Shown here: piece by piece, positions 26,061 to 53,800 of the stretch
How the letters are laid out: each line of letters begins with the position of its first letter
Position numbering within the stretch: position 1 is the first letter of the stretch
Source of the DNA: Narcine bancroftii
Lineage: Eukaryota
NCBI RefSeq assembly: GCF_036971445.1
Contig: NC_091473.1
Coordinates: 204,414,001-204,478,000 of the forward strand
DNA: 64,000 nt
Reading direction: 5' to 3'
Position numbers and translations under genes: made by a program
Notes under the pieces: model-generated
Seen by the model: the letters and a program-made list of their open reading frames with translations, nothing else
What the model was told of the DNA's origin: nothing
Databases searched by the model: none

Positions 26061-26064
26061 ACTG

Positions 26065-31300: not shown

Positions 31301-31910
31301 GAGAGGAAGTGTTCCTCACCCAACCTCGGTGGAAAAAGTTTCTATCAATACCTCTCTTAATTTTGGACACCTCCATCAAATCTCCTCTCATTCTCTGACG
31401 CTCCAGGGAATAAAGACCTAACGTGCTTAACCTTCCCCCCTGAAAGTCAGCTGCTGAAGTCCCGGCAACATCCTTAGAAATCCTCTCTGCACTCTTTCGA
31501 TCTTATTGACAGCTTTCCAGAAGCCAGGTGACCGAAACGGCCCACAGTACTCTGAATTTATCTCACCGACGTCGGATACAACGTCAACACAATGCCCCAA
31601 CTCAGCACTTTGATCTATGAAAGCCAACGTGCCACAGACTCTTTCCACTTTCGGGGAATTGTGTATCTGTATTCCCAGATCCCTCTGATCTACTGTGTCC
31701 CCAGTGCCCAACCCTTCACCGTGTACGTCCTGCCCAGGTGTATGTCCTCTCAGAGATGCTACACTTGTCTGCATTAAACTCTATTTTCCTCACTGCAGCC
31801 CATGTTTCCAGCTGGTCCAGATCCATCTGAAAGCTTGGAAAACCTTCCTCGCTGTCCACAATTGCATCAACTCTCTAATCCAATTTACCACATTATCAAT
31901 GATATATAAC
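28370..31910. mobile_element. Cluster of nested CR1 fragments on both strands
   Basis: YMDFSKAFDEVPH, SGVPQGSV, MQRRLTRTLPGL, MRGDLMEV and similar motifs in several short ORFs. Confidence 0.85.
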
Positions 31911-33056: not shown

Positions 33057-33206
33057 CTTGGGAGGCCTCCATCGTTGTCCTTTTTCCAAAGCCATCAGGA
33101 CCCTGTCGTCTTCCAGGTGCTCAAAGACATCCTCGCTGTCGATGACTGTCCCATCCTCCTCCAGGACGAGCGTGGCCAGCTCGCTGATGAGCAGCACATC
33201 CAAAGC
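33057..33206 (-). CDS. CIDEB: CIDEB coding exon 3 (CIDE-N domain)
   Basis: TLVLEEDGTVIDSEDVFEHLEDDRVLMALEKGQRW; phase 0-0. Confidence 0.95.
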
Positions 33207-33709
33207 CTGGGAAGGGGAGAGGTACCGTGACCCACTGTAGGGATTCCCCACTGGTGGGGGGGGGGGGGAAGGAGGGGTGAGGTGAGGGGGGAGAGGTACC
33301 ATCACCTGCTGTGGGGTTTAAATTCTGGGAGAGGGATGGGCAGATGGCAGGGATCAGGGGAGGGGGACCATCACCCAATGTGGGAATTTCCTATTTGGAG
33401 TGGCAGTAGGAGCAGGAGAGAGGAGGAGAGAAGGGTTTGAAGATTGGGGGAGAGGGAGAGAGGAGGAGAGAAGGGTTTGAAGATTGGGGGTTAGGAGTGG
33501 GAGAGAAGATAGAGAGAGGGAAGGGAGGGGGAGAGGGGAGAGGAAAGGGGTTGGGGACAGGTGAGGGGTGAGAGGAGGGGAAGAGGGTGTAAAGGGGTAG
33601 AGGGGCATGCGCATGTGACTCTGTGTGCGTGTCTGACCCCTCCCCCACTGTATGCCTGTGATCCCTGGGAACCACCACCCCTCTTTCCTCGAGACACCCC
33701 AGGACCCAC

Positions 33710-33851
33710 CTTGTTGATCAGCTCCCCGAGGGTGCCAGCCGTCACGCCATGGCGCTGGGACCGGTCGTGGTTACAGAGCCGGAAGGGGCGGCGGTGGGGT
33801 GAGGAGCTCCACAGCCTCCTGGTCATCTCGGTGCTGGCAGCTGTAATCGAT
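33710..33851 (-). CDS. CIDEB: CIDEB coding exon 2
   Basis: RRLWSSSPHRRPFRLCNHDRSQRHGVTAGTLGELINK; phase 2-0. Confidence 0.95.
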
Positions 33852-34364
33852 CTGGGGGTGTGGAAATCAGCGTCACTCACCCTCGATTTCCCTCGATCCC
33901 ATCACCCCGACTCCTCTCAATTCCCCTCACACAACCCTATGATTCCCCTCGGTAGGGAGGGAAATGGAGGAAAGGGAGGATGGGGAGGAAGTGGTGGTAG
34001 GGAGGGGAAGAGGTGAGGGGGGAGAGAGGGAGGTGGGGGAGGGAGAGAGGGTGGAGGGGGAGAGAGGGTGGAGGGGGAGAGAGGGTGGAGGGGGAGAGAG
34101 GGTGGAGGGGGAGAGAGGGTGGAGGGGGAGAGAGGGTGGAGGGGGAGAGAGGGTGGAGGGGGAGAGAGGGTGGAGGGGAGGAAGTGGTGGAGGGGAGGAA
34201 GTGGTGGAGGGGAGGAAGTGGTGGAGGGGGAGAGAGGGTGGAGGGGGAGAGAGGGTGGAGGGGGAGAGAGGGTGGAGGGGGAGAGAGGGTGGGGGGTTGG
34301 AGTGAGGGATGGTGGGGTGGGATGGGAGGGGGCGCCCCTTACCCTCGGAGGGGACGGAACTAAC

Positions 34365-34417
34365 CTGACCAATGAGGATGCTGTGGTCACGTAGTCCTGG
34401 GTCTTGGGAGAGTCCAT
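34365..34417 (-). CDS. CIDEB: CIDEB coding exon 1
   Basis: MDSPKTQDYVTTASSLVR; donor AG|GTTAGT, phase 2 matches exon 2; total ~217 aa. Confidence 0.75.
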
Positions 34418-34677: not shown

Positions 34678-34968
34678 CCCAGCCCAACCCAGCCCACTCG
34701 CTGGGAAATCAGCTGACGCAGAGGGCCTTTGGTACATGAATGTACCCCAGTTTTGGCCCACCTGAGCTGATCCCACTCCCTCCCTCCCTTTGGCCTGTGT
34801 CTCTCAAAAAGGATCAGACACGCAAACAGACCAGAGGGGAGAGGGTCACAGGCCAAAGGGAGGGAGGGAGTGGGATCAGCTCAAGTGGGCCAAATCTGGG
34901 GTACATTCATGTACCGAAGGCCCTTTGCGTCGGCTGATTTCCCAGCGAGTGGGCTGGGTTGGGCTGGG
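34678..34968. repeat. Long inverted repeat: 122-bp arms, 47-bp spacer, 5 mismatches
   Basis: 34678-34799 is the reverse complement of 34847-34968. Confidence 0.95.
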
Positions 34969-34969
34969 A

Positions 34970-36340
34970 AAGGAGGGTGAGGGAGAGGGATACAATAGGA
35001 GAGGGAGAGAGAGAGGGATGAGGGAATGGGGGAGAGGAAGAGGGGTGTGAGAGATAGAAGGTGACTATGGGAGGGGTGAGGGAAAGGGAGAAGGAGGGGG
35101 AGGGTGAGGGATAGGGAGAAGAATAAAGAGGGAGTAGGAGGAAAAGGGAGGGAGTAGAAGAGGGAGGAAGGGTATAGAAGAGGGGAGGGAGGGAGTAGAA
35201 GAGGGAGGGAGTAGAAGAGGGAGGGAGGGAGTAGGAGGGAGGGAGTAGAAGAGGGAGGGAGTAGGAGGAGAAGAGGGAGTAGGAGGAAGGAGAAGAGGGA
35301 GTAGGAGGGAGGAGAAGAGGGAGTAGGAGGGAGGAGAAGAGGGAGTAGGAGGGAGGAGAAGAAGGAGAGAGGAAGGGAAGGCAAAGGGAGGGAGGGAAGG
35401 CAAAGGGAGGGAGGGAAGGCAAAGGGAGGGAGGGAGAGAAGGCAAAGGGAGGGAGGGAAAGGAAGGGGAGGGTGGAGAGGGAAAAGGGAGGGGGAGGGTG
35501 GAGAGGGAAAAAGGAGGGGGAGGGTGGAGAGGGAAAAGGGAGGGGGAGGGTGGAGAGAGAAAAGGGAGGGGGAGGGTGGAGAGGGAGAGAGGGAGGTAGG
35601 ATGGAGGGGAGAAGGGGGAGAGAGGAAGAGGGATGGAGGGGAGAAGGGGAAGGGATGGAGGGGGTGAGAGAGGGTAGGGAGAGGGGAGGAGTGAGACAGG
35701 AGGAGGGAGGGGAAGAGAGGGAGAGGGAGGTCAAGGAAGAGACTGGAAGGAGGGAGGGGAGAGGGAGGGAGGGCAAGGAAGAGACTGGAAGGAGGGAGGG
35801 GAGAGAGAGGAAGAGGGAGGGGAAGAGAGGGAGAGGGAGGGCAAGGAAGAGACTGGAAGGAGGGAGGGCAAGGAAGAGACTAGAAGGATAGGAAGGAAGA
35901 TGGAGGGGAGAGAGGGAGGGAGGGCAAGGAAGAGACTGGAAGAGGGAGGAGGGAGGGGAGAGGCAGAGGGAGGGGAAGACAATAGGAGAACAGAACCTCG
36001 GCAGCATTTAATGTGGTTTTAAGAGGGGGGTTTCAGAGGAACAGAGAGAGGGAGAGGGCGGGGTCAGCAGAGGGGGTGGCTGGGAGCAGGAGGGTATGGA
36101 GGGAGGGACAGAGGGAGTCAGACAAAGGGGAGGTGGGGTGGGTCGGGGGAGGAGGTAGGGTGTTCAGGGGAAGGAGAGGGGGTTTGGGGAGGGAGAGGGT
36201 GTTTGAGGGAGAGGGAAGAGGGGTGTTGGGGAGAGGGTGTTTGAGTGAGAGGGGGGAATGGGGTGTTGGAGGGAGGGTAGAGGGGGTTCGGGGAGGGAGG
36301 GGAGTTTGGGGGAGGGGAGAGGGTGGATGAGAAAGGGTGG
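34970..36340 (+). repeat. Polypurine (G/A) low-complexity tract; similar tracts at 33960-34320 and 37790-38680
   Basis: Almost pure G/A with short internal tandem units. Confidence 0.9.
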
Positions 36341-36662
36341 GGGAGGGGTGCTGTGACAGGAAGAGAGGCCAGCCTTGGCCCTGAGCCCAGCCGTCTCGTT
36401 GGCGTCTGCCTCCTCCATGTGCAGGAAACGAGATGGACCCCTTGGGATCTCTCAACTGCTTGAGGCACAGGGTGGGTCCCAGGACCCAGGGGGGTGGGGG
36501 GTGTGTGATGTGGAATCTCTGGCCCACACAAGATGGGGGGGGAGGGAGGGGAGGACATGGTGGATTGGCTGAGGCTGGAGTGATGTCTGTACAGCCCCCT
36601 CTCCCCTCTCCCCTCCTGTTTTCTTCTGTCTCCTGCTCTCCCATCCCCACACTGGCCTTGGG

Positions 36663-37068
36663 ATGAAGACAGAGAAGGGGTCCGAGGGAGCAGAGGGGGA
36701 GGCTGGCCATCTTTGGGATGTCTCGCTTGGAAATCCCCGGCACCTGAAGCTCCAGGCGCTGGACTTCACTGACCTGCGTGAGGAGGAGGAGGAGGCAGTT
36801 GGGGATGAGAAGGGTGGGACCGCCGAGCCCCTCTCCCACCCCCCTTCTCCCCCTCTCCCTCCCCCCCCCACCCCTCGGGATCCCCAAGCCCGCGTGGGCT
36901 GGGACGCGCAGGCTGCACTGGAAGGGGATACAGGAGCTGCCTTCCGTCCCCAAGTACAGCCGCTTTGGGCCGTCCACCATCTGGGCCAGACTGGACCCTG
37001 TGCCTTTGGACACCGACCACCTGCGGGATCTCTTCGGACGGAGCCCCAGCGACTTCAGGACCCCTCAG
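36663..37068 (+). CDS. FHOD-family formin exon A (LDFTDL motif, short FH1, FH2 lasso); apparent 1-nt frameshift in the C-run near 36861-36869; 5' boundary uncertain
   Basis: LKLQALDFTDLREEEE-PPSPPLPPPP, then in the next frame RRLHWKG...SRFGPSTIWARLDPVPLDTDHLRDLF, similar to FHOD1/3; donor CAG|GTGAGC. Confidence 0.8.
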
Positions 37069-40000
37069 GTGAGCACACCCTGGAAGGGAGACAGCAGGAG
37101 GTGCAGACACAGCCTGCGGGTGGGGTGGGGGGGGGGAGGTGGGGCATTTGCCTGCCTCGCTGTGCAGGGGGCTGAGCACAGAAACCAGGAGCTCATGGTA
37201 CAGGCGCCAGAGAGAGGACACCCCAACTTCCTGGACACAGGAAGGGCAGAGTGAGTTCACCGGGACATTCCCCAGGACTGGATGCGCTCTCGGGTTATTG
37301 GAGAGGGGACAGAACACAGGAGTGGCTTCTCACTGGAAGTGGATGTTTCGGATCTGAGCCCCTCATTGTGGGGGAGGGTGGTTGGGGGGTGCAGAAGGAA
37401 CGCAGGCTGCCTCGTGCCCAACCACTTCCACTCCATGCCCCATTCCCACAGCCAAACTGAGACCACCCACCCAAACTGGAGAAATAACAGGGCTCCCTCA
37501 GCTAGACAGCCATTCCTGTTCACCCCCTCCCCCCAGTATCTCCCCCTGTTCCTCTGTCTCCTCCAGCTTCCCACCCCTCACCTTCCCACTCCTACCAGAG
37601 ACCCCCCCCTCTCTCTCTCTCTACCCTCCCACCTGTAGCCACCTCTCCCTTCCCCTTCCTTCCCCCACCACCTCCGCTCCCTCCCCCCCACCTCCACACC
37701 CTCCCCCCCACCTCCACACCCTCCCCCCCACCATTTTTATTCAGGGGCCTGCCTGCTTTTTCACAAGTGGGAGGTGGGGCTGTTCCTGAAGAAAGAGGTG
37801 GAGGGAGAGAGAGAGAGAGAGAGAGGTGGAGAGGAGGAGGGAAGGGGAGCGGGAGGAGGAGACAGGCAGAGGAGAGGTGGAGGAGGAGGGAGAGAGGGAG
37901 GGAAAGAGGCATAGAGTTAGAGAGGGAGAGTGGGCAGGAGAGAGTAAGAAAGAGGAGGGGGAGAGACGGAGAAAGGGAGAGGAGGGAGGGGGAGAGATGG
38001 AGAAGAGGGGAAGAGGAAGGAGGGGGAGAAATAAAGGGAGGGGAGAGATGGTGAGAGAGGAGGGAGAGGGAGAAGAGGGGGTGAGAGAGGAGGAAGGAGG
38101 GGAGAGATGGAGAGGGGAGAGAGAAGGGAGGGGAGAGATGGAAAGGAGGGGGAGAGAGAAATAGAGGGAGAGGAGAGATAGAGGAGGGGAAGAGAGAGGA
38201 AGAGGGGTAGAGAGAGAAGGGAGGGGAGAGATGGAGAAGAGGGGGAGCGGGGGGAGAGAAATAGGGGAGAGAGATGGAGAAGAGAGAGATAGGGAGGGAG
38301 AAGGGAGGGGAGAGACAGAGAAGAGGGGGAGAGGGGGGAGAGAAATAGAGGAGAGACGGGGAAGAGAGGGGACAGAGGGAGGAGGATGGAGGGGAGCGAT
38401 GGAGAGGAGGGAGGGGACAGATGGAGAAGAGGGGAGGAGAGAGAGGAGGGAGGGGAGAGACCAAAAAGAGGGGGAGAGAGAGAGGGGAGGATGGAGGAGG
38501 AGAGAGGAAGAGAGAGGAGGGAGGGGAGAGAAGGAGAAGAGGGAGAGAGGAGGATGAAGGGGATGGAGAAGAGGGGAGAGAGAGAGGAGGAGGGAGGGGA
38601 GAGATGGAGAAGAGGGGGTGAGAAAGAGGAAGAGGGAGGAGAGAGAGTAGAGACAGAGGAGAAAAGGGGAGGGAGAGAGGGTCAGGCTTAAAATGTAGAT
38701 GTGCTGCCTGACCTTGTGTCCCTCTCTTCAAGTGGAGAGGTTTTCTCTCTCTCCTGCGCCCCCCTCCCCCCCACCTTCACGGACTCTGCTCGGCCCCCCC
38801 TTTCCCTCTCTCCCAGTGGGCAGTGTCTAGCTTTGGATTAATTTTGCTTGCTACCAAATACTTGGTATTGGCGAGCGAGGTCCTTCTGTGAGCTGTCTGG
38901 TTGTTCGGACGTGTCAAGGTCCCAGTTTATGGAGTGTGGGGAGGTGGGGGTTTACAGTGAGGAGGGTCCTTTCGCGAGCTGTCTAGCTGGTCATCTCTCA
39001 CCTTCGTGGACCCATGTAACCAGCCCGGTTTCTGGACTGTGGGGTGTCAGTGAGGAAGGAGATCAGTTTGCTCTGAGCAGGAGAGCACTGCTCTGGGGGG
39101 TGGGTCCAATGGCTGCAGGGAAGGAACCATATCTGAGACTGTGGGGGTGCGATGTAGAACATTACAGGCCCTTCAGCCCATTATGTGCTGAAACCTATCC
39201 CACAGCAATCCTTCTCTTGCACCCACCGGCCTCCATGTTCCTGCCTCCGAGTCCTTTGAATGCCTTTATGGTCCCATCCTTCACCCCTACCCCCCAGTGA
39301 GGCTTTCCCCTGTGTGGAAAAACCCACCCTGACGTCTCCCCTAACTCAGCCAAAAGATGGGCACAGAATAAGGCCATTCGACCTATTGCATGTGCTTCCC
39401 CCATTTGATCCATGGCTGATGTATTCCTCTCAACCCTTTTTTTCCAGCCATCTCCCCACAGTCTCGACACTCTTACCAATCAACAATTTCCACTTTCTAA
39501 ATTCCAGTGAGCACTGGCCCAGAGCTCCCTGTATGTTAACCATTAATCCTCCCATCCCCGGGATCATTCTTATGAACCTCTTCCGGACTCCCTCCAGTAC
39601 CTTTGACATGGCAAAGGTGGAGCGACCAATGCCTGATAAAGCCTCAGTGTTTTATCCTTGCTTGTACATTCTAGTCCTCTTTAAATGAATGGTGACACAG
39701 GATTTGCCATCCTCCCTGCCCACTCAACCCACAGGTTGTTGGTGTAGTTGTGGTTGTTGACAGGAATGGAAAGTGACAGTAGATTTAGTGGTGCACTTGG
39801 CCTCATTGGACAGAGGGTACTGAAATTCAGAGCAAGTTCATTATCATCAGGCTGTAAATCTACAACCAGACGAAACAGCATTTTCCCAGACCATGATGCT
39901 TGATATAGCACATAATAATTGTATAAATACAGTATAAAACAAACAGATATAATATTTTGGGATGATTTACTAGGCTACAGGATACTGTTCATCAATCAGA

Positions 40001-40629
40001 CATGATTTTGATGCTCCTGTACCTCCTTCCTGCTGGTAGTGGGTCAAAGATGCTGTGTCTTCGATAATCCTTTGAGCCCTCTTTCAACAACACTCCCGTT
40101 CTCAGCTACTCCCCCCCCCCCACCCCCCCACCACCGCCCCCCGGACTCTGCTTGACGTGTGTGAGCCCCCTTTCCCTGCGGAGCGGCCAAGTCCTGGCCT
40201 CTTCCATCCTGTTCTCTTACCAACTGCACCAACTGCATTTCAAAAGGTTACACGAGGGGGAAAGGAAACAAGGTTTTTACTTGAATGTGTTGCAGAACCT
40301 TCTCCCCCCCCCCCCCCCCACCGAGAGGGACCGTAGAGATTCCCCCACCCTAGAGAAAGTCTGCCCCAAACTTTCCCCCACTCACCTTAAATCTGTGTAA
40401 TTTTTAAATTTAAATGTAGACAGGCAGCATGGCCATTTTGGCTCATGTGTCCATTAACCTATACCCCCAACCCTGGTACGTTTTGAACGGTGGGAGGAAA
40501 CTGGATCCCCTCCCTGAGAAAACATACAAACTTCTTACAGACAGCGTGGGATTCGAACCCAAGTTGCTGAGGCTGTAAATGTGTGGCACTGGCTGCAAGG
40601 CCAACCATCAGACATGATGGTGTGAGTGA

Positions 40630-40900
40630 ATGTTTCTGGTGTCTCTTACTGTCATCCCGGGATACAGGTGCTGGCTGTCTGCCCTATCTCTAGTGTCTCC
40701 TACTGTTGTCCCGCAAAACAGGCGCCGGCTGTCCACCCTATCTCTGGTGTCTCCTACTGTCGTTCCGCAAAACAGGTGCCGGCTGTCCACCCTTTCTCTG
40801 GTGTCTCCTACTGTTGTCCCAGGAAACAGGTGCCAGCTGTCCACCCTTTCTCTGGTGTCTCCTACTGTTGTCCCGGGATCAAGGCGCCGGCTGTCCACCT
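40630..40900. repeat. 54-bp tandem repeat x ~5, apparently amplified from a CR1-like segment
   Basis: Unit tctctggtgtctcctactgttgtcccg.aaaacagg.gccggctgtccaccct; the minus frame reads RVDSRHLFP. Confidence 0.85.
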
Positions 40901-41199
40901 TATCTTTGCCTCTCTCTCACAATCTTGCAGACATCTATCACACCACCTCTTCTCCAAATCCCCCGGCCCTGTCTTGCTTCCTGTGGCCATGACCTCCAGT
41001 CCGGGCCATGTCCTGGTAAATCTCTTCTACATCCTTCCTGTAATGAAGTGACTAGAGCTGAATGCAATGATCCCAAGTGTGGAGTTTTACAGAGCTGCAC
41101 AGTACCTAGTGGCTCTTGGACACTGCACCCCCCCCCCTCATTTCCATCATCTCCCCATGGATTCTGCTCCTCCACCCACACTGTGTGGCTGGACTTGTA

Positions 41200-41636
41200 A
41201 ACTACAGGTGTACCATGGAGAATATTCTGGCTGGTTGCATCTCTGCCTGGTACGGAGGTGCCAACTCTCAGGTCAAGAATAAACTCCAGAGGATTGTTAA
41301 CTCGGCCTGCGACATCACAGGCACCAACGGTGTCTTAAAAAAATGGCCTCTATCCTCAAAGACCCCCACCCCCCAGGCCTTGCCCTCTTCACTCTGCTAC
41401 CATCTGGGAAAAGATACAGAAACCTTAAGATGAGCACTCAGCGGCACAAGGACAGCTTTTTCCCCGCTGCCATCAGATTCCGGAATGATCAGTGAACCAG
41501 AGACCCTGCTGCACTTTGGCTTTTGTTCACCACTGTTATTTATTGTTATGAGGTGGTTTGTATGAACGTTGGCTCTATGACGTTGCGCGAAACAATGAAT
41601 TTAGTGACTTGTCTGTGACAATAAATCCTGATTCTG
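41200..41636 (+). mobile_element. Rex1/Babar LINE 3' fragment
   Basis: YRCTMENILAGCISAWYG; 3' end aataaatcctgattctg. Confidence 0.75.
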
Positions 41637-42066
41637 GTCCTATCTCTCTTTCCCTCTCCTCATCTCTTCTCCCCTTTCACTCTCCCTCTTCCCATCTCCC
41701 CACCCCTCTCCCTCTCTCTATCATCTGCCTCCCTCCATCTCTTTCCCTCTCCCCCTATCTCCGCATCTCCCACTCTTTATCATCTATCACTCCATCTGTA
41801 GCTCTCCATCTTTGCCTTTCTCTCCCCTCCTCTCCTCCTCTCCGTGATGTACCGTAGGGGACAAGTGGGCTGAGCTGATAGTTTGGAATTCACCACAATA
41901 TTCTTGGGGTTCAGAGGGGGCTGGGATTATCAGGAGAGGCTGGGTCGGCTGGGAGGTTTCTCCCTGGAGTGTCGGAGCTCAGCATCCCACTGGGAGGGGG
42001 TGGGGCTGAAGTGCTGCTTCTGTAACTGTTCCCTGAGAGCTGCGCCCCTTGTCCGTGGCCTTGCAG

Positions 42067-42219
42067 CATGGAGTGGGCCGGAGATACGAGCTCAACGTGC
42101 TGCCAGCGAAGAGGAGCAACATGGTCAATATCGCACTGAAGGCACTGCCAGCCCCACATCTGGTCCATGCCGCCCTGCTCTCCCTCGACCGCTGTGTCCT
42201 GGGCAGGGAAGCCCTGCAG
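42067..42219 (+). CDS. FHOD-family formin FH2 exon B
   Basis: VLPAKRSNMVNIALKALPAPHLVHAALL resembles FHOD VLDPKRSNAINIGLT; phase 0-0. Confidence 0.9.
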
Positions 42220-42269
42220 GTGAGAATGGGGAGGCTTGTGGCCTTAGCCAGAGGGGCCAGGGGTCGGGA

Positions 42270-42820
42270 CAGGTGTGTTGGGGTGTGTGGGAGTGAGTGT
42301 TTCGGGGTGTGAGTCAGGGTGTGAGTGAATGTTTCGGTGTGTGAGTGTGCAGGGGTGAGGTGTTTTTCGGGGTGGGGGTGTATGACTGAGTATTTCAGTG
42401 GGAGTGTGTGTTGGGAAGTGTGTGTGTGAGTGAGTGTTTTGGGGTGTGTGAGTGTCGGGATGTGTGTGTGAGTGTGTCGGGGAGTGTGTGTTGGGGTGTG
42501 CGTCAGGGAGTGTGAGTGTGTTGGGTGTGTGTGACTATTTTGGGGTGTGTGTCAGGGTGTGTGAGTGAGTGTTTCGGGGTGAGTGTGTCAGGGTGTGTGT
42601 GTGTCAGGGTGTGTGTGTGTCAGGGTGTGTGTGTGTCAGGGTGTGTGTTTGAGTGTGTATGTCGAGGGTGTGTGTGTCAGGGTGTGTGTGTGTCAGGGTG
42701 TGTGTTTGAGTGTGTATGTCAAGTGTGTGTGTGTGTATGTGAATGTGTCAAGGTGAGTGTGTGTGTGTGTGTGATCTTTTGGGGTGTGTACATCGGGATG
42801 TGTGTGTGAGTGTGTCGGGG
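42270..42820 (+). repeat. GT-rich low-complexity/microsatellite tract
   Basis: (gt)n with cagg interruptions. Confidence 0.9.
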
Positions 42821-42892
42821 TTTGCGTCGACACGCGACGGTGTTGAGTTATGAGCTCTGACCATGCCCTTGACCCTGGCCCCTCTCCCACAG

Positions 42893-43075
42893 AGACTCCA
42901 GTCCCTTGTCCCGACAGAGGATGAGATTCGGCTGATTCGAGGGGCCCAGGCATCCCACCCGGGCCGGACCCTGGGCAGTGCCGAACAGTTCCTGCTGCGA
43001 CTGTTCTCGGTCCCTCAACTCCATGCCAGGCTCAGCTTATGGGTCTTCACCCTCGACTACGACAGCAGAGAGAAG
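42893..43075 (+). CDS. FHOD-family formin FH2 exon C
   Basis: PTEDEIRLIRGAQ...LGSAEQFLL...ARLSLWVFTLDYDSREK; phase 0-0. Confidence 0.92.
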
Positions 43076-43374
43076 GTGAAGGGAATGGGGAGGGGGTTAC
43101 GGAGAGGGGGGTGGGTGTTGACAGTGAGCGGTGTGGGGGGTGACAGTGAGGAGTGTGGGTGTGACGGTGTGGGGGTGATGGTGAGGGGTGTGTGGGGTGA
43201 CGGTGAGGGGTGTGGGGGTGACGGTGTTGGGGGTGACGGTGAGGGGTGTGGGGGCTGACGGTGAGGGTTATGGGGGACACAGTGAGGGGTGTGGTGGACA
43301 AGGTGAAGGGTGTGGTGGACAAGATGAGGGGTGTATTGGAAGTGATATTGCCCCCCTCTTCCTCCTCCATGCAG

Positions 43375-43494
43375 GAGATTGCGGAACCTCTCTTTGACCT
43401 CAAGCTCGGTATGGAGCAGTTGGCTGGGAACAAAACCTTCCACTGTGTTCTTGCTACCCTGCTGGCAATCGGGAATTTCCTCAATGGTGTCAAC
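43375..43494 (+). CDS. FHOD-family formin FH2 exon D
   Basis: [16 protein letters not shown]...[13 protein letters not shown] (FH2 GNxxN motif, FHOD-type). Confidence 0.95.
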
Positions 43495-43726
43495 GTGAGT
43501 TTCTTATCCCGTCATACACTCCCGGGGACGGACACAGAGTGAAGCTCCCTCCACACCGTCCCCTCACACACTCCCGGGGACAGACACAGAGTGAAACTCC
43601 CTCAACACTGTCCCCTCACACACTCCCGGGTACGGATATAGAGTGAAGCTCCCTCCGCACCGTCCCCTCACACACTCCCGGGTACGGATATAGAGTGAAA
43701 CTCCCTCAACACCGTCCCCTCACGTT

Positions 43727-46700
43727 GGGAGTCACATGATGGAGTAGTGGCTGGTCGGGGAACTCCAGCCCTCTCCGGAAAAGTTTAAAAAAAACACACA
43801 AAACACAAAGGCACAAACATAAAAATTAAAATAAAGTGAAAGTAAAGGTGGGAAGAAAATGGCAGCGAAGAAAGAAAAGTCGAAAGCAACGGGAAGAAGA
43901 GAAGAAGAAAGAACGTCGGAAGAAGAAGGTGAAGGCCTTACCTGTCCGAGGAGGCCCACTGTGGAGAGAGAAGCCCGCTCCCTAAGGTCAGTTAGTCCTC
44001 GGGACTACAAAAATGGCTCGCGGAGCCAAGTAAAAGTGCGCGATGCGCATGACAAAAAAAACACTGACGGGAGGGGGGACCAGCTGAGGAGTCGATCTCC
44101 ACAGCTGAGAATGACAGCTACAACACAACAACAGGAAGAGAACATAGAAAACAATGAGAACAAGAAAGAAGAGAGCAAAAAGAAAACAAGGAAACAACAG
44201 ATGACCAACCCAGAGGAAGAAGAAGAACATAGAGAAATGGAAAAAGAAGGGAAAGGCAAGACAATGGATATATTTTTTTTAAAGAATATATGGAATCAGT
44301 AAAAGAATGGCAATTACAAGAATTTAGTGAAATAAAAAGAAGAATTAAAAGTACAGAAGAAAAAATGAATAGATTAGAGATGGTCATGTCAGATATAGGA
44401 AAAAGAGTGGACAAGGTGGAAGAACGAGAAACAGCCATAGAAATGGAAGTAGAGGACTTAAAAAAGAAATTAGAAGAATCTAATCAAAAAGTTAAAGAGA
44501 CACAAGAGCTGTTAGCTCAGAAGATCGATATAATGGAAAATTATAATAGAAGAAATAATATAAAGATAGTGGGCCTGAAGGAAGATGAAGAAGGCAAGAA
44601 TATGAGAGAATTTATAAAAGATTGGATCCCCAGGGTCCTAGGAAGACCAGAATTACAGGAAGAAATGGAAATAGAAAGGGCACATAGAACATTAGCCCCT
44701 AAACCACAGCCACAACAAAAACCATGATCCATTTTAGTAAAATTCTTAAGATATACAACAAGAGAAAATATTTTGGAGAAAGCAATGAAGAAAATAAGAG
44801 AGACAAAAAGTCACTGGAATACAAAGGTCAAAAAATTTTTTTCTATCCAGATATAAGTTTTGAACTCCTGAAGAAGAGAAAGGAGTTTAATACAGCAAAA
44901 GCGATCCTATGGAAAAAAGGATATAAATTTATGCTAAAGTACCCAGCGGTATTTAAAATAGTTATTCCAGGACAGCAAAACAGACTATTCTCGGATCCGG
45001 AGGAAGCACGAAAATTTGCAGAACAACTACAAAACAGACAGAGAGATGAAGACATGTAATGAGAGTAAAAATGACCACGAACTATATGTATGTGTGTATA
45101 TGGGTATATATATATATATATGTGTGTGTATGTATATATGTGTGTACATGAGTGTATCCGTATTTAAAGGATCCGTATTTGTATATATATGAAAATTAAA
45201 ATCTTTTCTGGGGGGGGCTGAGTGGGGAGGAGTTACGGTCACTGCGAAATAATTTGACGCTTGCGAGTGAATTCCCAAATCCAAATGGAGAGGGGAGATG
45301 GTTGCCCGACAAGGGATAAAGGGCAACTCAGGAAGGGGAGGGAATAATGGGGTTAAAGAAATTTTAGATAGGAGAATAAGGGAAATGTTTGATGTTTTAG
45401 AAATGTTGTCTTATAAAGTGTTCAAAACAAGAAAGCAGAAATGGATAAGAAGGAAAGGTGATGATGAGGAAAACGGAAAGGAAAGATAAACAAAGTATGA
45501 AATGGTTACGTTGAATTATATGACTTTAAATATTAACGGAATACATAACCAAATCAAAAGGAAGAAACTGCTAAATTTACTGAAAAAAGAAAAAATTGAT
45601 ATAGCATTCGTGCAAGAAACACATTTAACAGAAATGGAGCACAAGAAATTAAAGAGAGATTGGGTAGGACATGTAACAGCAGCGTCATATAATTCAAAAG
45701 CTAGAGGAGTAGCAATATTAATCAGTAAAAATGTACCAATTAAAATAGAAGAGGAAATAATAGATCCAGCAGGGAGATATGTAATGATAAAATGTCAGAT
45801 AATCAGAGTTTTGGAATTTACTCAATGTATATTCATCTAACGAAAAAGATCAAAAATTTATGCAAGATATTTTTTTGAAGATAGCAGACACGCAAGGGAA
45901 CATACTAATAGGAGGGGATTTCAACCTTAATTTGGATTCAAACATGGATAAAACTGGGAAAAAAATTAACAGAAAGAACAAAGTAACCAAATTTATAATT
46001 AAATCGATGCAAGAAATGCAACTTTTGGATATATGGAGGAAACAACACCCAAAGGAAAAGGAATATTCATATTATTCAGGTAGACATAAAACATACTCAA
46101 GAATAGACCTATTCCTGTTATCAGCTCGTATGCAAGATAGAGTAAGAAAAACAGAATATAAAGCTAGAATATTATCGGACCACTCACCCCTGATATTGAC
46201 AATAGAGTTAGAGGACATCCCTCCAAGAATGTATAGATGGAGATTAAACTCCATGCTACTTAAAAGGCAGGATCATTGAAAGACAAATTAAAATGTACTT
46301 TGAAATAAATACGGAATCAGTGAAAGATAAGTTTATACTATGGGACGCAATGAAAGCGTTCATCAGAGGGCAAATAATAAGTTATGTAACCAAGATGAAG
46401 AAGGACTACAATCAGGAAACAGAGCAGTTGGAAAGGGAAATAGTAAATATAGAAAAAGAATTAGCAATGAAGGAAGACACAACTAAAAGAAGAGAATTGG
46501 CAGATTAAAAAAAATAAAATATGAAACACTACAAACATAAAAGATGGAGAAGAACATAATGAAGACAAAACAGAAATATTATGAACTAGGAGAAAAAACG
46601 CACAAAATTCTTGCATGGCAGCTTAAGACAGAACAAAGTAAGAGAATGGTATTGGCATCAGTGAAAAAAGACAAACAAATCACATATAATCCAACGGAGA

Positions 46701-49506
46701 TTAATGAAAACTTCAGAGAATTTTATGAACAATTATACCAAATTGAAAACGAAGGGAAAGAAGACAAAATAGATGAATTTTTAACTAAAATTGAACTACC
46801 AAAATTACAAATAGAGGAACAAAACAAATTAACAGAACCATTTGAAATAGTAGAAATACAAGAGATAATAAAAAAACTACCAAATTATAAAACACCAGGA
46901 GAGGATGGATTCCCAATAGAATTCTATAAAACATTTAAAGATTTATTAAATCCTCTCCTCCTGGAAGTAATCAACCAGATTGATAAAACACAAAGCTTAC
47001 CAGATTCTAGGAAAACAGCAATAATTACAGTAATACCAAAGACAGGGAAAGATCCACTCACACCAGCGTCATATAGACCAATATCTTTACTTAACACAGA
47101 TTATAAGATAATAGCTAAACTATTAGCAAACAGATTGGCCGACTATGTACCAAAAATGGTAAATCTAGATCAAACTGGATTTATTAAAAAAAGACGAACA
47201 ACAGACAATATTTGTAAATTTATTAACTTAATTCATGCAGGAAATAAAGCTCCAACTGTAGCAGTTGCTTTATACGCAGAGAAGGCCTTTGACAGAGTAG
47301 AATGGAATTATTTATTCAAAGTATTACAAAAATTCAGTTTACTAGAGAAGTATATTAATTGGATTAAAGCATTATATAAGGGGCCATTGGCGAAAGTGAC
47401 AGTAAATGGATATATATCAAAGCAATTTAACTTAAGCAGATCAACAAGGCTGGGATGCCCACTATCACCCTTATTGATCATGTTAGCTATAGAACCACTA
47501 GCAGAATTGATAAGAACAGAAAGTAAAATAAAAGGGATAAAAATAAAAGACAAGGAATATAAAATCAGTTTATTTGCAGATGACGTTATAGTATACTTAA
47601 CAGAACTGGAAATATCAATAAAAGAATTACATAAGAAATTGAAGGAATATGGAGAAGTGTCGGGTTACAAGATTAACGCAAATAAAAGTGAAGCAATGCC
47701 AATGAATAATGCGGATTTCTCAAAATTTAAGAAAGAATCACCATTCAGATGGCAAACGCAAGCAATGTGATATCGAGGTATACAAATAAATAAAAACCTC
47801 GGCCATCTATATAAACTCAATTATTATCCGCGAATGAAAAAATTACAGGACAACTTAGAGCATTGGAAAGATTTACCACTAACACTAATAGGAAGGATAA
47901 ACTGTATTAAAATGAGCATTTTCCTAAGGATGCAATACCTATTTCTGGCATTGCCAATACACTTGACGGAGAAATTCTTCAAGGAGTTAAAGAAAATAAT
48001 AAGGAAATTTTTATGGAAAGGGGGAAAACCGAGGATAGCACTAGATAAATTAACAGAATGGTATAAACAAGGAGGCTTACAATTGCCAAACTTTAAAAAT
48101 TATTATAGAGCTGCACAATTAAGATACCTATCAGATATTTATCAAACAAGGGAAAAGCCAGATTGGACTAGATTAGAACTAGATAAAATAAGGGAGAAGA
48201 TACCTGAACATATATTATATAAATGGGATGAAAAATTGGTACAACGTAGGAATTCTCCAGTATTACATCATCTGCTCAATATTTGGAAGAAGATTCATGT
48301 AGAAAGGAATAAAACAAATTACCAATTACCAAAACTAATACTGACGCAATCAGCTAATCCCTTTTACAATAGATAACCTTTCCTTTAGAGAATGGGAGAA
48401 AAAAGGGATCAAAAGAATAGAAAATTGCTTTTCAGGAAATAAATTATTATCCTTTGAACAAATGAAGGATAAATATAATATAACTCAAGATACAGTGTTG
48501 GCATACTACCAACTGAAATCCTACTTGAAGGATAAATTGGGAAGCAGTCTGAGGTTACCAGAGGGAAGTAATTTTGAATATGTGACTACAAACACAATGA
48601 TAATCAAAACATTTATTACAAAAATGTATATTAAACTGCAAGAAAAGGAGAATGAGGAAACAAATGGTAAAACTAAACAAAAATGGGAACAAGATTTAAA
48701 TATAAAGATTAAAAAGAAACATGGGAGAAGTTATGCTCTGGAACTATGAGAAATACAATAAACACGAGGCTACGTATGATACAATATAACTGGATACACA
48801 GGCTATACATTACACCTCAAAAGTTAAATAAATGGGACCCAACAGTATCTGACATGTTTTCGTTGTAAAAAGGAAATGGGAACAACGATTCATGCAATCT
48901 GGACGTGTGAGAAAATGAAAAAATTTTGGGAAGATCTAAACCAGATATTAAATAAAATCACAGAAAGCAATATACCAAAAAACCCAGAGATCTTCCTCCT
49001 AATTAACATAAAAAACAAAGAATTTGGACTTGATTTGGATGGTGCACAAAAAAGATTTGTTCGGATAGCCCTAGCTGAAGCAAAAAAATGTATTATGTCA
49101 GCCTGGAAATTAGAAGATAACTTGAGAATACAACAATGGTATATACCATATATAACATATAATTTAAGAAATAATTTTGAAATATTTGAACAAATATGGG
49201 AGCCATACATGAAACACAATAGAGAAAACCTACCGGGGACATCTACCACCTAAAATGACAGAAGGAGAAGGAAATGAAAAGCATTGACTCAGTGGAATTT
49301 CTTGTTTATTTTTATTGAGTGACAACATTGTTTGACGGGTTTAATGTATTTTAGATTCTGTACTTTAAATGAATGGGAGGGGAGGTAGGTAGGGAGGGTG
49401 GGATGGGAAGGGGGGGAGAAAACGACACTGTATATATTTGAAAACAAAAATGTATGTATCTTGATCAATGTGGTTTATAGTGTGAAAAATAAAATTAAAA
49501 AAAAAA
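43727..49506 (+). mobile_element. Full-length L1 LINE (sense to the formin), ORF1 and ORF2 disrupted, poly(A) tail, 16-bp TSD
   Basis: 5' gggagtcacatgatgg; ORF1 pieces 43859-45059 (NYNRRNNIKIVG); ORF2 pieces 45502-49253 (APE, FADD); AATAAA at 49488; TSD aacaccgtcccctcac at 43708-43723 and 49507-49522. Confidence 0.95.
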
Positions 49507-49899
49507 AACACCGTCCCCTCACACACTCCCGGGTACGGACATAGAGTGAAGCTCCCTCCACACCATCCCCTCACACACTCCGGGTCAGATACAGAGTGAA
49601 ACTCCCTCTGCACCGTCCCCTCACACTCCTGGGGACAGACACAGAATGAAGCTCCCTCCGCACCGTCCCCTCACACACTCCAGGGGACAGGGTCAGAATG
49701 AAGCTTTCCATGAGGATGTTTACAGGGGTAGAGCATTCCAGTAATAAGGAGATGGATGGTGGTCTTTGGAATGAGTATGGGCTGCTGCTATCGGTTGGAG
49801 AGGTGTTTGGTAAACTTGCAGGGGTATGGGCATGTGGGTAGTCTGGCCGTGGGAAGAGGTGGTCTGTGGGGTTGGGAGTAGGTGAGATGGTCATGTATG

Positions 49900-50290
49900 G
49901 ATGGTGTGCTGGATGAGGGGAGTGGTGGTCTGTCCATTGGAGTGGAGGAGGGGTGGTCTGTCCATGGGAGTGAGGAAGGGTGGTTTGTCCCTGAGAGTGA
50001 GGGAGGGAGGCCTGTCCCTGGGAATGAGGGAGGGTGGTCTGTCCCTGGGAGAGAGGGAGGGTTGTCTCTTCCTGGGAGTGAGTGTGAGTGGTCTGTTCCT
50101 GGGAGTGGGGAAGGGTTGTCATTCCCTGGAAGTGAGAGAGGGTGTTCTGTCTTTGGGAGTGGGGGAGGTTGATCCGTCTCTGGGAGTGAGGGAGGGTGGT
50201 CCGTCCCTGGGAGTGGGGTAAGGTGGCCTGTCCGTGAGAGTGAAGGATGGTGGTCTGTCTCTGGGAATGAGGGAGGGTTGTCTGTGGGTT
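49900..50290 (+). repeat. Degenerate ~28-30-bp tandem repeat (gggagtgagggagggtggtctgtccct)
   Basis: Directly visible upstream of exon E. Confidence 0.75.
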
Positions 50291-50341
50291 GTGGTGGGCT
50301 GTTACCTTGCTGTGCTGATCGCTGTACTGTCTCCCCTACAG

Positions 50342-50503
50342 GCCAAGGGCTTTGAGCTGTGCTACCTGGAGCGGGTGCCTGGGGTACGGGACACGGTGAA
50401 CAAGAAGCCACTGCTCCATCACGCCTGCTCCATCATCATCCAGAATTTCCCTGACACCACCGACTTGTTCTCTGAGATCACCGGACTTACTCGCTCAGCC
50501 AAG
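50342..50503 (+). CDS. FHOD-family formin FH2 exon E; the gene continues beyond the window
   Basis: AKGFELCYLERVPGVRDTVNKKPLLHH...DLFSEITGLTRSAK; phase 0-0. Confidence 0.92.
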
Positions 50504-50521
50504 GTAGCCCCAGGGCAGCCA

Positions 50522-50792
50522 TCCCATCTCTCCCTGGAATCGACCCATCTCCCCCTGGAATCGACCCATCTCCCCCCTGGAATCGACCCATCTCCCCCCT
50601 GGAATCGACCCATCTCCCCCCTGGAATCGACCCATCACCCCCTGGAATCGACCCATCTCCCCCTGGAATCGACCCATCTCCCCCTGGAATCGACCCATCT
50701 CCCCCTGGAATTGACCCATCTCCCCCTGGAATTGACCCATCTCCCCCTGCACCCGACCCATCTCCCCCTGCACCCGACCCATCTCCCCCTGC
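50522..50792 (+). repeat. 21-22-bp tandem repeat (cccatctccccctggaatcga) x ~12
   Basis: Directly visible after the exon E donor. Confidence 0.93.
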
Positions 50793-50820
50793 ACCACAAC
50801 TGTTGAAACTATAATTCTTT

Positions 50821-53800
50821 TTTTTTAAATTTTTTTATTTTTCACACCATAAATCACGTTAGCCATGATATACACTTTTTCTTTTTCACACATATACAGT
50901 GACTTTTTCTCCGCCCCCCTCCCTCCTCCCAAGCCACCCCCCCACCCCCCCCTCTCATCCATTTTAGGTATACAATCTAGGTTGCATTAAGCCAGTCAGA
51001 CAATGTTGTCATTCAACAAAAATACACCAGAAATTCTACTGAGTCCATTCTTTTCTTTTCTTCTCCTTCCATCAACTTAGGTAATGTTTGTTCCCGGTAG
51101 GTTTTCGCTATTGTATTTAATGTAAGGCTCCCATACTTGTTCGAATATTTCAATATTATTTCTTAAACTATATGTTATTTTTTCTAATGGGATACATTTA
51201 TTCATTTCTATATACCATTGTTGTATTTTCAAATTATCTTCCAATTTCCAGGTTGACATAATACATTTTTTTGCTACGGCTAGGGCTATCTTAACAAATC
51301 TTTTTTGTGCATCCTCCAAGTCAATTCCAAATTCTTTATTTTTTATGTTACTTAGGAGAAAGATCTCTGGATTCTTTGGTATATTATTTTCTGTTATTTT
51401 ACTTAATATCTGATTGAGATCATCCCAAAATTTTTCTACTCTCTCACATGTCCAGATTGCATGAATTGTTGTTCCCCTTTCTTTTTTACATCGAAAACAT
51501 CTATCAGATACTATTGGGTCCCATTTATTTAACTTTTGCAGTGTAATGTATAGTCTGTGTAACCAATTATATTGTATCATACGCAGCCTCGTATTTATTG
51601 TATTTCTCATCGTTCCAGAACATAATTTCTCCCATGTTTCCTTTTTTTTATCTTTATATTTAAATCTTGTTCCCATTTTTGTTTAGTTTTACCATTTGTT
51701 TCCTCATTCTCCTTTTCTTGCAGTTTAATATACATATTTGTTATAAATTTTCTGATTAACATTGTATCTGTAATCACATATTCAAGGTTACTTCCCTCTG
51801 GTAAACTCAAATTGCTTCCTAATTTATCTTTCAAGTAGGATCTCAGTTAGTAATATGCCAGCGCTGTATCTCCAGTTATATTGTACTTATCTCTCATTTG
51901 TTCAAAGGATAAGAATCTACTTCCTGAAAAACAATTTTCTATTCTTTTAATCCCTTTTTTTCCCCATTTTCTAAAGGAAAGGTTGTCTATTGTAAAAGGG
52001 AGTAGCTTATTTTGCGTCAATATTAGTTTTGGTAATTGATAATTTGTTTTATTTCTTTCTACATGAATCTTCTTCCATATATTGAGGAGATGGTGTAATA
52101 CTGGAGAAGTTCTATGTTGTACCAATTTTTCGTCCCATTTATATAATATGTGTTCAGGTATCTTTTCCCCTATTTTATCTAATTCTAATCTCGTCCAGTC
52201 TGGTTTTTCCCTTGTTTGATAAAAATCTGATAGGTACCTTAATTGTGCGGCTCTATAATAATTTTTGAAGTTTGGCAATTGTAAGCCTCCTTGTTTATAC
52301 CATTCTGTTAATTTATCTAGTGTTATCCTCGGTTTCCCCCCTCTCCATAAAAATTTCCTTATTATTTTCTTTAACTCTTTGAAGAATTTTTCTGTCAGTT
52401 GTATTGGCAATGGCTGAAATAAGTATAGTATCCTTGGAAAAATGTTCATTTTAATACAGTTTATCCTTCCTATCAGTGTTAGTGGTAGCTCTTTCCAATG
52501 CTCTAAATCGTCCTGTAATTTTTTCATTAGTGGATTGTAATTGAGTTTATATAATTGGCCTAGATTTTTGTTTATTTGTACACCTAGGTATCTTATTGCC
52601 TGCATTTGCCATCTGAATGGGGATTCCTTCTTAAATTTTGAGAAATCTGCGTTATTCATAGGCATTGCTTCACTTTCATTTACGTTTATCTTGTATCCCG
52701 ACACTTCTCCATATTTCTTCAATTTCTTGTATAGTTCTTTTATTGATAGTTCTGGTTCTGTTAAGTACACTATCACATCATCCGCAAATAGACTGATTTT
52801 ATATTCCCTGTCTTTTATTTTTATTCCTTTTATATTATTATCTATTCTTATCAGTTCTGCTAGTGGTTCTATAGCTAGCGCAAACAATAATGGTGATAGT
52901 GGGCATCCCTGCCGCGTTGACCTGCTTAAGTTAAATTGCTTTGATACATGTCCATTTACAGTCACTTTCGCTAACGGTCCCTTATATAATGCTTTAATCC
53001 AATTAATATACTTCTCCGGTAAACTGAATTTTTGCAATACTTTGAACAAATAATTCCATTCTACTCTGTCGAAGGCCTTCTCTGCGTCTAAAGCAACTGC
53101 TACTGCAGGTGCTTTATTTCCTTCTACTGCATGAATTAAGTTAATAAATTTACAAATATTGTCTGTTGTGCGTCTTTTTTTGATAAATCCAGTTTGGTCT
53201 AAATTTACCATTTTCGGTACCTGTTCTGCTAATCTGTTTGCTAATAGTTTAGCTATTATCTTATAATCTGTGTTTAGCAAAGATATTGGTCTATATGACG
53301 CTGGTGAGAGTGGATCTTTCCCTTGTTTTAGTATCACTGTAATTATTGCTGTTTTACATGAATCTGGTAAGTTTTGTGTCTCATCAATCTGGTTGATTAC
53401 ATCCAGGAGGGGCGGTATTAATAGGTCTTTAAATGTTTTGTAGAATTCTATTGGGAGTCCATCCTCTCCTGGTGTCTTATTATTTGGTAATTTTTTTATT
53501 ATCTCTTGTATTTCTACTGTTCCTAATGGTTCTGTTAATTTATTTTGTTCCTCTATTTGTAGTTTTGGTAGTTCAATTTTAGTCAAAAATTCATCTATTT
53601 TCCCTTCTTTCCCTTCGTTTTCAGTTCGGTATAATTGTTCATAGAATTCTCTGAAGTTTTCCTTAATTTCTTTTGGATTATATGTAATTTGTTTGTCTTT
53701 TTTCCTTGTTGCCAATACCATTTTCTTAGTTTGCTCTGTCTTAAGCTGCCATGCTAAGATTTTGTGTGTTTTTTCACCTAGTTCATAATATTTCTGTTTT

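Follow-up and report, generated by a model that had tools for sequence, protein, structure and literature searches.

We found that a formin gene beside a CIDE-family gene in the ray Narcine bancroftii is real and spliced and that, judged from sequence profiles, it belongs to a clade of short FHOD proteins that lacks the GBD/FH3 region and, newly found here, the DAD as well. The window (the whole stretch of 64,000 nucleotides that was analysed, on C11) contains the start of the gene. It is likely, in our view, that this gene is a third jawed-vertebrate FHOD, that is, a genome duplicate of the FHOD1 lineage which was trimmed at both ends, is constitutively active and was lost in tetrapods. The gene structure, the transcript splice, the clade and the domain losses are directly supported, and the activity is what we infer.

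The formin gene lies on the + strand and has nine coding exons, four of them past the end of the window, encoding a 533-residue FH1-FH2 product (Table 1). It starts at ATG 36663, and this start is conserved, reading MKTEK here and in Latimeria, MKTG in Hypanus and MKQ in many teleosts. The five exons with GT-AG sites and named motifs that had been described earlier were recovered, but the FH2 is not limited to them, as it runs past 50503 into the four further exons 23-25 kb beyond the window. The divergent CIDE-N gene, reported at about 2.2 kb, indeed lies close by, its ATG at 34417 (minus strand, predicted start) being 2,246 bases from ATG 36663; we take it to be CIDEB, a paralog name that comes from synteny.

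Table 1. Features of the locus. Positions are those of the window; L003 is C11:204498001-204508000 of the same genome.
Feature	Position	Strand	Remarks
NOP9	12436..20895	+	approximate exon span; PUF_NOP9 E 4.5e-26 and 4.3e-8
CIDE-family gene taken as CIDEB	24331..34417	-	CIDE-N matches in two exons; other exons read from sequence
G/A simple-repeat tract	34950..36340	+	between CIDEB and formin
5' leader	36408..36662	+	unspliced in probable RNA contigs; several short upstream ATGs; in-frame stop 36570-36572
Coding exon 1	36663..37068	+	start codon, helix, LDFTDL and acidic stretch, single polyproline FH1, FH2 lasso (both Trp)
C-run stretch in FH1	36840..36877	+	assembly 1 base longer than probable RNA contigs; frameshift as assembled
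Coding exon 2	42067..42219	+	FH2; bears invariant actin-binding Ile (FHOD3L I1163)
Coding exon 3	42893..43075	+	FH2
Coding exon 4	43375..43494	+	FH2 post, GNFLN
Coding exon 5	50342..50503	+	FH2; Arg where FHOD3L has K1309
Intron 5, portion in the window	50504..64000	+	LINE and long minisatellite
Coding exon 6	L003:3098-3288	+	GC donor directly after
Coding exon 7	L003:4039-4213	+	FH2 end
Coding exon 8	L003:4594-4774	+	tail with basic SLPR motif
Coding exon 9	L003:5159-5190	+	10 residues and stop, occupying the FHOD1/FHOD3 DAD-exon position

The short-form orthologs form a clade of their own, comprising 48 of the 240 compared proteins (branch 0.316, support 1.0), and all 17 chosen rows grouped together (100/100). 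Proteins of this clade are 357-682 aa long (median 557), and no longer match fell within it among the 120 listed. The DFxDL motif is present in 40 of the 48, always in the first 77 residues, and 29 of these 40 begin with MK; a basic LPR tail is found in 38 and a final Trp in 28. The members come from sharks, rays, coelacanth, lungfish and ray-finned fishes including zebrafish, while protein searches gave no tetrapod short form among the matches listed (the best 120 of 295 of near length), and the short FHOD was apparently lost in tetrapods. Orthologs include those of zebrafish (LOC101886613/XP_021333332), gar (XP_069044706), coelacanth (XP_014348267), lungfish (XP_043914674) and stingray (XP_059807479). 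The preliminary description had proposed a loss in mammals; no mammal is among the matches, but the loss seems wider than that. Matches from the ESM Atlas carry taxa at phylum level only. One catshark model, P0004, has a different, CCDC102-like N-terminus; a real start of this kind was rejected, no such gene occurring in the 264 kb around the formin or on C11, and the model is probably fused since another Scyliorhinus protein starts with MKTET.

The gene was assigned to the FHOD subtype by its FH2 grouping, intron pattern and DFxDL motif, and all eight of its introns coincide with FHOD1/FHOD3 introns in place and phase. The earlier proposal of a third paralog agrees with the FH2 tree, where the short forms make up their own clade (100/100) outside both FHOD1 and FHOD3 and a grouping of shark and ray short forms with shark and ray FHOD1 is rejected (AU p 1e-56). 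The short gene is not nested in either clade, nor is it this genome's copy of either, since C22 carries a full FHOD1 and C1 a full FHOD3, and FH3 as well as DAD exons are present in both. The short, FHOD1 and FHOD3 groups all belong to the vertebrate clade (100/99), from which amphioxus and Saccoglossus are excluded, and each contains cartilaginous and bony fish members; this tree position and membership date the duplication to after the divergence of the invertebrate chordates and before that of sharks and bony fishes. The tree favours the short clade as sister to FHOD1 (98/96), and its branches exceed those of FHOD1/3 severalfold in length.

The absence of GBD/FH3 exons, noted previously, extends to 264 kb around the formin, where the best tblastn match had E 0.27 and no HMM match fell under E 3.4; seven FH2 exons were recovered in the same way. 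A GBD/FH3 region nested in CIDEB or NOP9 introns or lying upstream was rejected on the same 264 kb. Genome-wide, eight of nine FH3_FHOD1-3 matches are on C1 and C22, and the ninth, on C21, has E 0.98. In Pfam, each of 13 short forms had FH2 alone, and both controls had FH2, FH3 and GBD. A DAD profile matched 117 of 120 full-length proteins at E<1e-5, none of 57 short forms under E 0.088 and nothing in the 264 kb. The formin is thus without the canonical FHOD N-terminal SRBM/GBD and FH3/DID and without the C-terminal DAD with its ROCK sites, in whose exon position a 10-residue ending is found.

The FH2 profile PF02181 matched at E 4e-66 over 11-371 of 372 residues, and the lasso Trp residues (W39, W60) and the Ile (I110) are invariant; the FH2 fold was predicted with high confidence for the Hypanus ortholog and matches the solved FH2 of mDia1, DAAM1 and INF2. 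In FH1, a single polyproline run is found here and in most orthologs counted, and Latimeria has no run of four Pro.

Since both halves of the off-switch are lost, the product is probably an always-on formin, and the absence of the DAD in addition to GBD/FH3 strengthens the idea of escape from autoinhibition put forward in the preliminary description. The protein (533 aa here) would be an FH1-FH2 formin dimer that DID-DAD pairing is unable to close, with neither ROCK switching at DAD sites nor nesprin binding. It is predicted to nucleate and bundle actin, and may elongate more processively than FHOD1/3 because the DAD-adjacent basic stretch is absent; control would fall on expression, turnover or new conserved N- or C-terminal motifs. 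Removal of the DAD is known to activate FHOD proteins (PMC4601495, PMC10192571), the DAD-less Drosophila Fhod-B shows processive runs of about 20 um (PMC10797183), and FHOD3L-CT, whose start point is nearly the same as that of the short protein, nucleates (PMC12263155).

The same domain losses could also have left a real paralog that is a weak capper or bundler, a heterodimer partner tuning FHOD1/3, or a protein shut by contact between its acidic N-terminal motif and basic tail, instead of an always-on elongator; we consider this rather unlikely. The second actin-contact residue (FHOD3L K1309, 146 residues after the Ile) is Arg in this ray and nearly all ray-fins, and this Lys-to-Arg change and the reduced FH1 would suit weak activity, as would the finding that FHOD1 itself is a weak polymeriser (PMC10192571). 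However, Hypanus, most sharks, coelacanth and lungfish retain the Lys, and the Ile does not vary. A contact between the ends would agree with the conserved acidic DFxDL-EEE start and the basic, often Trp-ended tail, but the predicted structure has no confident fold or placement for either terminal motif, which speaks neither for nor against it.

As for the origin of the gene, a whole-genome duplication is favoured over a segmental one. The FHOD1 lineage would have been duplicated at the DNA level before sharks and bony fishes parted, most likely in the second whole-genome duplication, with the copy lying in the GMPR-NOP9-CIDEB segment; the 5' exons for SRBM/GBD, FH3/DID and most of the disordered region would then have been lost, and the DAD exon replaced by the 10-residue ending. 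Human 14q11-12 and 16q are paralogous segments, carrying EMC9/EMC8, IRF9/IRF8, CARMIL3/CARMIL2 and NFATC4/NFATC3. The EMC8/9 family has two loci only in the ray, one on C22 and one on C11 at 0.6 Mb from the window, and is the one of four marker families searched that pairs C11 with C22. Searches for NDRG, CARMIL and NFAT-like genes gave C22 matches and none on C11, weak blanks in which only the best candidates were scored; the earlier argument from NFATC4 gained nothing from the PF00554 and PF16179 searches, which likewise scored the best candidates and had no C11 match. CIDE-N loci do not adjoin FHOD1 or FHOD3 in this genome, and inspection by eye of the long ORFs in 95 kb downstream showed no LTB4R-, ADCY4- or RIPK3-like gene.

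This thin paralogon evidence leaves some room for a third gene that arose by partial (3' half) segmental duplication of FHOD1, or by a split older than FHOD1/FHOD3, which we judge improbable. A partial copy would explain the missing 5' half in one step, and the short-gene start does sit within an internal FHOD1 exon; for the deeper split, a position of the short clade outside FHOD1, FHOD3 and cyclostomes is not rejected (AU p 0.104). Against these origins stand the EMC8/9 pair and the human paralogous segments, together with the best tree placement, which is that predicted by the second duplication, and a 3' partial copy leaves the DAD loss unexplained.

As assembled, LDFTDL is in frame 0 and the FH2 start in frame 1 of exon 1 of the formin, so that the two are mutually out of frame and translation of the spliced exons ends after 196 aa; the previous five-exon coding reading holds for exons and motifs, but the break in exon 1 had gone unnoticed. 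In all three probable RNA runs used, the contigs lack one letter of the assembly at the C-run (one gap, no other mismatches), the exact gap place being unlisted and bounded by gap-free pieces within 36840-36877. This difference restores the formin frame, with 533 codons open, and no further stop or shift occurs across the nine exons. The RNA status of the runs is a guess (four are so marked), all are from a single study, and depth was not taken as expression. A spliced transcript is indicated by the exon 1 to 42067 splice, which is present as a loose end in contigs X4, X5 and X6. A pseudogene in this ray with a real FH1 frameshift, to which the assembly, a DNA run (X1) falling short of the site and a database model (P0001) beginning at a wrong-frame ATG might point, is highly improbable given the three shorter RNA contigs and the otherwise intact exons.

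It is equally improbable that the gene is a normal FHOD of full length with 5' exons that assemblies or gene models have missed, as the label 'partial' in PMC5047451 would imply. The segment is rich in GC and in repeats, P0004 has a different N-terminus, and the contigs, which cannot reveal the true transcript start, cover the leader over 36408-36839 (X4), from 36536 (X5) and from 36548 (X6). However, there is no N run in the 264 kb, the in-frame TGA at 36570 is covered by contigs from each of the three probable RNA runs, the MK start is common to sharks, coelacanth, lungfish and ray-fins, and the DAD is absent too, with FH3 on C1 and C22 only. A short exon at 36425-36471 (ATG 36433) spliced to 36669 had been suggested and was not borne out, X4 being colinear across the region with the joint absent and the TGA in frame; the same colinear cover, missing joint and stop reject its use as an internal exon of a gene with a remote 5' portion. 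The interpretation in the preliminary description is supported in its main lines, a third paralog that would escape autoinhibition, while co-regulation with CIDEB, also raised there, is a possibility. None of the three outcomes named there as refuting it was seen: the FH2 is not nested in FHOD1 or FHOD3, GBD/FH3 exons are absent from the 264 kb, and there is a spliced transcript.

Two FHOD genes have been counted in vertebrates and three in teleosts, and a 2025 preprint also counts three teleost fhod genes; the short gene changes this count. No description of it was found in the literature searched, with most subscription journals and the preprint supplements lying outside the search, and LOC101886613 occurred in none of the main texts. 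The short gene is overlooked, hidden under FHOD1 and FHOD3-like names. The loss of an ohnolog is in itself nothing unusual. Mild phenotypes of zebrafish fhod mutants have been ascribed to fhod3a/fhod3b redundancy, and the short gene bears on their interpretation. Tentatively, it could be a constitutive, highly processive and nesprin-independent FHOD1 ohnolog of the same age as the jawed vertebrates, steered by its conserved N-terminal helix/acidic motif and basic Trp tail, kept in lungfish and fishes and lost when tetrapods arose, forming an undescribed vertebrate formin class and, as a fourth zebrafish fhod, masking fhod1/fhod3 mutants; this full combination is possible, though doubtful. With DID and DAD both gone, it is a natural counterpart of laboratory-activated constructs, offering a direct test of whether the tails and N-termini of FHODs restrain processivity and of how cells tolerate an unbraked formin; since zebrafish has an ortholog, knockouts, expression studies and in vitro assays are readily done.

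Compared with known systems, the short gene is nearest in the tree to FHOD1, with an FH2 54% identical to that of this genome's FHOD1 and the same intron positions, DFxDL, lasso Trp and critical Ile. Unlike FHOD1, it is without SRBM/GBD, FH3/DID, most of the disordered region, and the DAD and ROCK sites, mostly has one polyproline run instead of 3-4 and a tail of about 80 versus 155 residues, and evolves much faster. With FHOD3 it shares introns and 52% FH2 identity in this genome, and databases often label short proteins 'FHOD3-like', whereas the domain losses are the same, the clade is separate and FHOD3 itself is on C1; the FHOD3L-CT construct begins about 33 residues ahead of DFxDL, versus 32 here (PMC12263155). 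Zebrafish LOC101886613 (Pruyne 2016, PMC5047451 S1 Table, S1 Text) has FH2 rows identical to P0047/P0398, the zebrafish clade member, and was entered as 'FHOD (partial)', meaning regions missing from incomplete data; it goes unnamed in the main text and was not regarded as a conserved gene. Precedents exist in FHDC1/INF1, FMN and delphilin for formins without DID/DAD control and in PHCF for loss of a formin in a vertebrate lineage, all of other subtypes than the FHOD-type FH2 found here (partly after PMC5047451). The Drosophila Fhod-B isoform is a rare splice form of a full-length gene, whereas the short gene is also without the N-terminal half; as a natural DAD-less FHOD that is processive in vitro, this isoform is the best working model for activity (PMC10797183).

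The short FHOD gene of Narcine bancroftii, a forward-strand formin with nine coding exons on chromosome C11, is real and spliced, an ancient third FHOD gene of jawed fishes in which both autoinhibitory elements are missing. In Pfam, all 13 short forms examined gave only FH2, and both full-length controls gave FH2, FH3 and GBD. Custom GBD/FH3 and DAD profiles gave no match in 57 short proteins or in 264 kb around the gene, a stretch with no N; the DAD profile matched 117 of 120 full-length proteins, and the FH2 profile matched seven exons. Across 13 aligned rows there is no variation at the lasso Trp residues or at the Ile corresponding to FHOD3L I1163. The K1309 position, 146 residues after the Ile, is Arg in Narcine and nearly all ray-fins; both lobe-fins and most other cartilaginous fishes have Lys. 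In the AlphaFold model of the stingray ortholog, most of 170-480 has a pLDDT above 90, and this confident FH2 core matches solved FH2 domains; the two ends and the lasso are modelled with low confidence.

The five exons of the preliminary description are present, all with GT-AG sites, and four further exons lie beyond a minisatellite of about 30 kb. Exon 1 is frameshifted as assembled: LDFTDL lies in frame 0 and the beginning of the FH2 in frame 1, and translation of the spliced exons meets a stop after 196 aa; with the C-run one base shorter, the nine exons encode 533 aa and a single stop. The database protein identical to the frame of the short gene (P0001, 486 aa, named FHOD3 at source, Narcine bancroftii) bypasses the frameshift by starting at an ATG of the other frame. 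Both the frameshift and the loss of the DAD had escaped the preliminary description.

Transcription was assessed at 36340-37500 with four of the eight listed sequencing runs, three of them presumed to be RNA (one study, three samples) and one DNA. The gene is spliced: each of the three presumed RNA runs yields a contig that breaks off at 37068, and its overhanging end carries the first letters of exon 2 (42067). All three contigs have one gap, no other changed letter and one letter fewer than the window (253/254, 532/533 and 520/521), and gap-free pieces bound the gap to 36840-36877. An assembly error and an allele at the C-run are both possible, because the DNA run does not extend across it. 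The contig of one presumed RNA run (X4) is colinear over 36408-36839 with no joint listed, and the upstream first exon proposed earlier is therefore not spliced as suggested. An in-frame TGA lies inside the contigs of all three presumed RNA runs, which do not mark the start site. Six upstream ATGs, opening frames of 8-77 codons, lie in the transcribed leader; some of these frames end on a stop overlapping the main ATG, and they could dampen translation of an unbraked formin.

Features of the short FHOD locus (window numbering, position 1 being 204,414,001 and the last 204,478,000 on C11, extended beyond the window end where marked "equivalent"; L003 is contig interval 204,498,001-204,508,000)
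Feature	Position	Strand	Remark
GMP reductase exons	8-14 kb before window
NOP9	in window	+	domain match
CIDE-N gene (taken as CIDEB)	in window	-	CIDE-N match
Copy of CIDEB coding-exon end (33070-33120)	32185-32235		51-base, 92%; in the following intron
Inverted repeat, MITE-like	34678-34805 / 34841-34968		128-base, 95%; ~260 bases upstream of CIDEB ATG, in shared upstream region
Upstream ATGs, six, in the transcribed leader	36417-36583	+
First exon proposed earlier	36425-36471	+	not spliced as suggested
In-frame TGA	36570	+
Exons 1-5 (ATG 36663)	36663-37068, 42067-42219, 42893-43075, 43375-43494, 50342-50503	+
LINE, near-full, intron 4	about 43800-49510	+
LINE, near-full, intron 5	about 50820-56720	-	1013-aa open piece of ORF2 retained
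Minisatellite, intron 5, between coding exons 5 and 6	56950-64000, on to about L003:3080		~30 kb, extent estimated from two ends
Four further exons	equivalent 87098-89190 (L003:3098-5190)	+
Intron 6 start, GC	equivalent 87289 (L003:3289)	+	GT in FHOD1 and FHOD3 of this genome
Retrovirus-like gag/pol/env open frames, several (L006-L008)	equivalent about 115000-136600		26-47 kb downstream of formin; by eye

Three FHOD-type loci were found in this genome with P0001: the short gene, FHOD1 on C22 and FHOD3 on C1, the latter two with FH3 and DAD exons. The eight introns of the short gene all agree with those of FHOD1/FHOD3 in place and phase, which makes it a DNA-level copy rather than a retrocopy. 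Its start sits within the equivalent of an internal FHOD1 exon, and its last exon occupies the place of the DAD exon and ends after 10 residues. In an IQ-TREE analysis (LG+C20, 48 chosen rows, 387 columns), support was 100/100 for the short clade, 99/96 for FHOD1, 98/96 for these two together and 100/99 for vertebrates; a branch with 98/96 places FHOD3 on one side and the short and FHOD1 groups on the other, with two cyclostome rows not firmly placed relative to FHOD3. The short gene is not a recent copy, since joining the shark and ray short forms with shark and ray FHOD1 was rejected (AU p 1e-56). A short clade outside FHOD1, FHOD3 and the cyclostomes was not rejected (p 0.104). Within the clade, there is broad agreement with the species tree, with long branches. 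The earlier idea of a shortened third FHOD paralog is borne out by a clade of its own, the absence of GBD/FH3 and splicing.

The comparison covered the best 120 of 295 near-length matches to P0001 and, among 3605 longer matches, the best 120. A FastTree of their 240 FH2 regions has a branch (0.316, support 1.0) that sets 48 proteins apart from the FHOD1 (114) and FHOD3 (78) proteins; all 48 come from the listed near-length matches, and none of the 120 listed longer proteins joins them. Clade members are 357-682 aa long (median 557); 40 of the 48 carry a DFxDL motif, always in the first 77 residues and with an MK start in 29 of the 40, and an LPR-type tail motif occurs in 38 and a final Trp in 28. 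The 44 named members are from rays, sharks, coelacanth, lungfish, reedfish, paddlefish, gars and teleosts including zebrafish, and the other four, without names, fall within the teleosts. A further, word-free search, over 1.84 billion representatives, added 143 rows, of which 13 are short-type, all from fishes. No tetrapod, chimaera or cyclostome member appeared among the 240 compared matches or these 143 rows, though an amphibian copy that evolves fast could rank too low to be listed. In a catshark model (P0004), residues 40-135 form a CCDC102-like coiled coil fused ahead of the short FHOD FH2, a possible sign that a CCDC102 paralog lies next to the gene in this catshark; no CCDC102-like gene was found near the window in Narcine bancroftii.

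The names CIDEB and GMPR2 at this locus depend on the human 14q12 gene order, GMPR2-NOP9-CIDEB. Human 14q and 16q share a wider paralogy. The EMC8/9 family has two loci here, one on C22 and the other 0.6 Mb from the window on C11, while NDRG, CARMIL and NFAT-like searches matched C22 and not C11, and one further NFAT-like search matched neither. Paralogon support in this genome is therefore one of four families, as only EMC8/9 pairs C11 with C22; NFATC4, NDRG2 and CARMIL3 may have been lost or missed in this ray.

Among titles and abstract beginnings, with subscription journals largely outside the scope, no paper describing the short FHOD gene was found, and gene-tree databases may already group these proteins. 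The S1 Table of PMC5047451 lists zebrafish LOC101886613 as "FHOD (partial)", a term used there for regions missing through incomplete data, and its aligned rows (S1 Text) read as the zebrafish member of the short clade. The same table gives human, mouse, opossum and chicken FHOD1 and FHOD3 only. Three fhod genes are mentioned for teleosts in PMC4601495 and in the main text of 10.1101/2025.05.17.654676, whose supplement may bear on the count.

According to PMC10192571 and PMC4601495, FHOD proteins are shut by DID-DAD pairing, ROCK phosphorylation of the DAD opens them, removal of the DAD activates them, the N-terminal module is a nesprin tether, and bundling proceeds via FH2. With one half of such a switch lost, the other would be useless, which fits the loss of both. 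The short protein is probably an always-open formin, independent of ROCK and nesprin and more processive than FHOD1/3; unlike activated FHOD1, it would not be expected to decorate actin bundles, because most of the disordered region is gone. Given its Arg change, reduced FH1 and new terminal motifs, the protein could instead be a weak capper or bundler, or be subject to a new kind of control. Drosophila Fhod-B without the DAD is described as processive over about 20 um as compared to about 2 um, and shorter tails nucleated better in the same work (PMC10797183). FHOD3L-CT (963-1622) is reported to be a nucleator, in which I1163A abolishes nucleation and K1309A cuts it by ~85% (PMC12263155); this construct starts ~33 residues ahead of the DFxDL motif, and the natural short protein does likewise.
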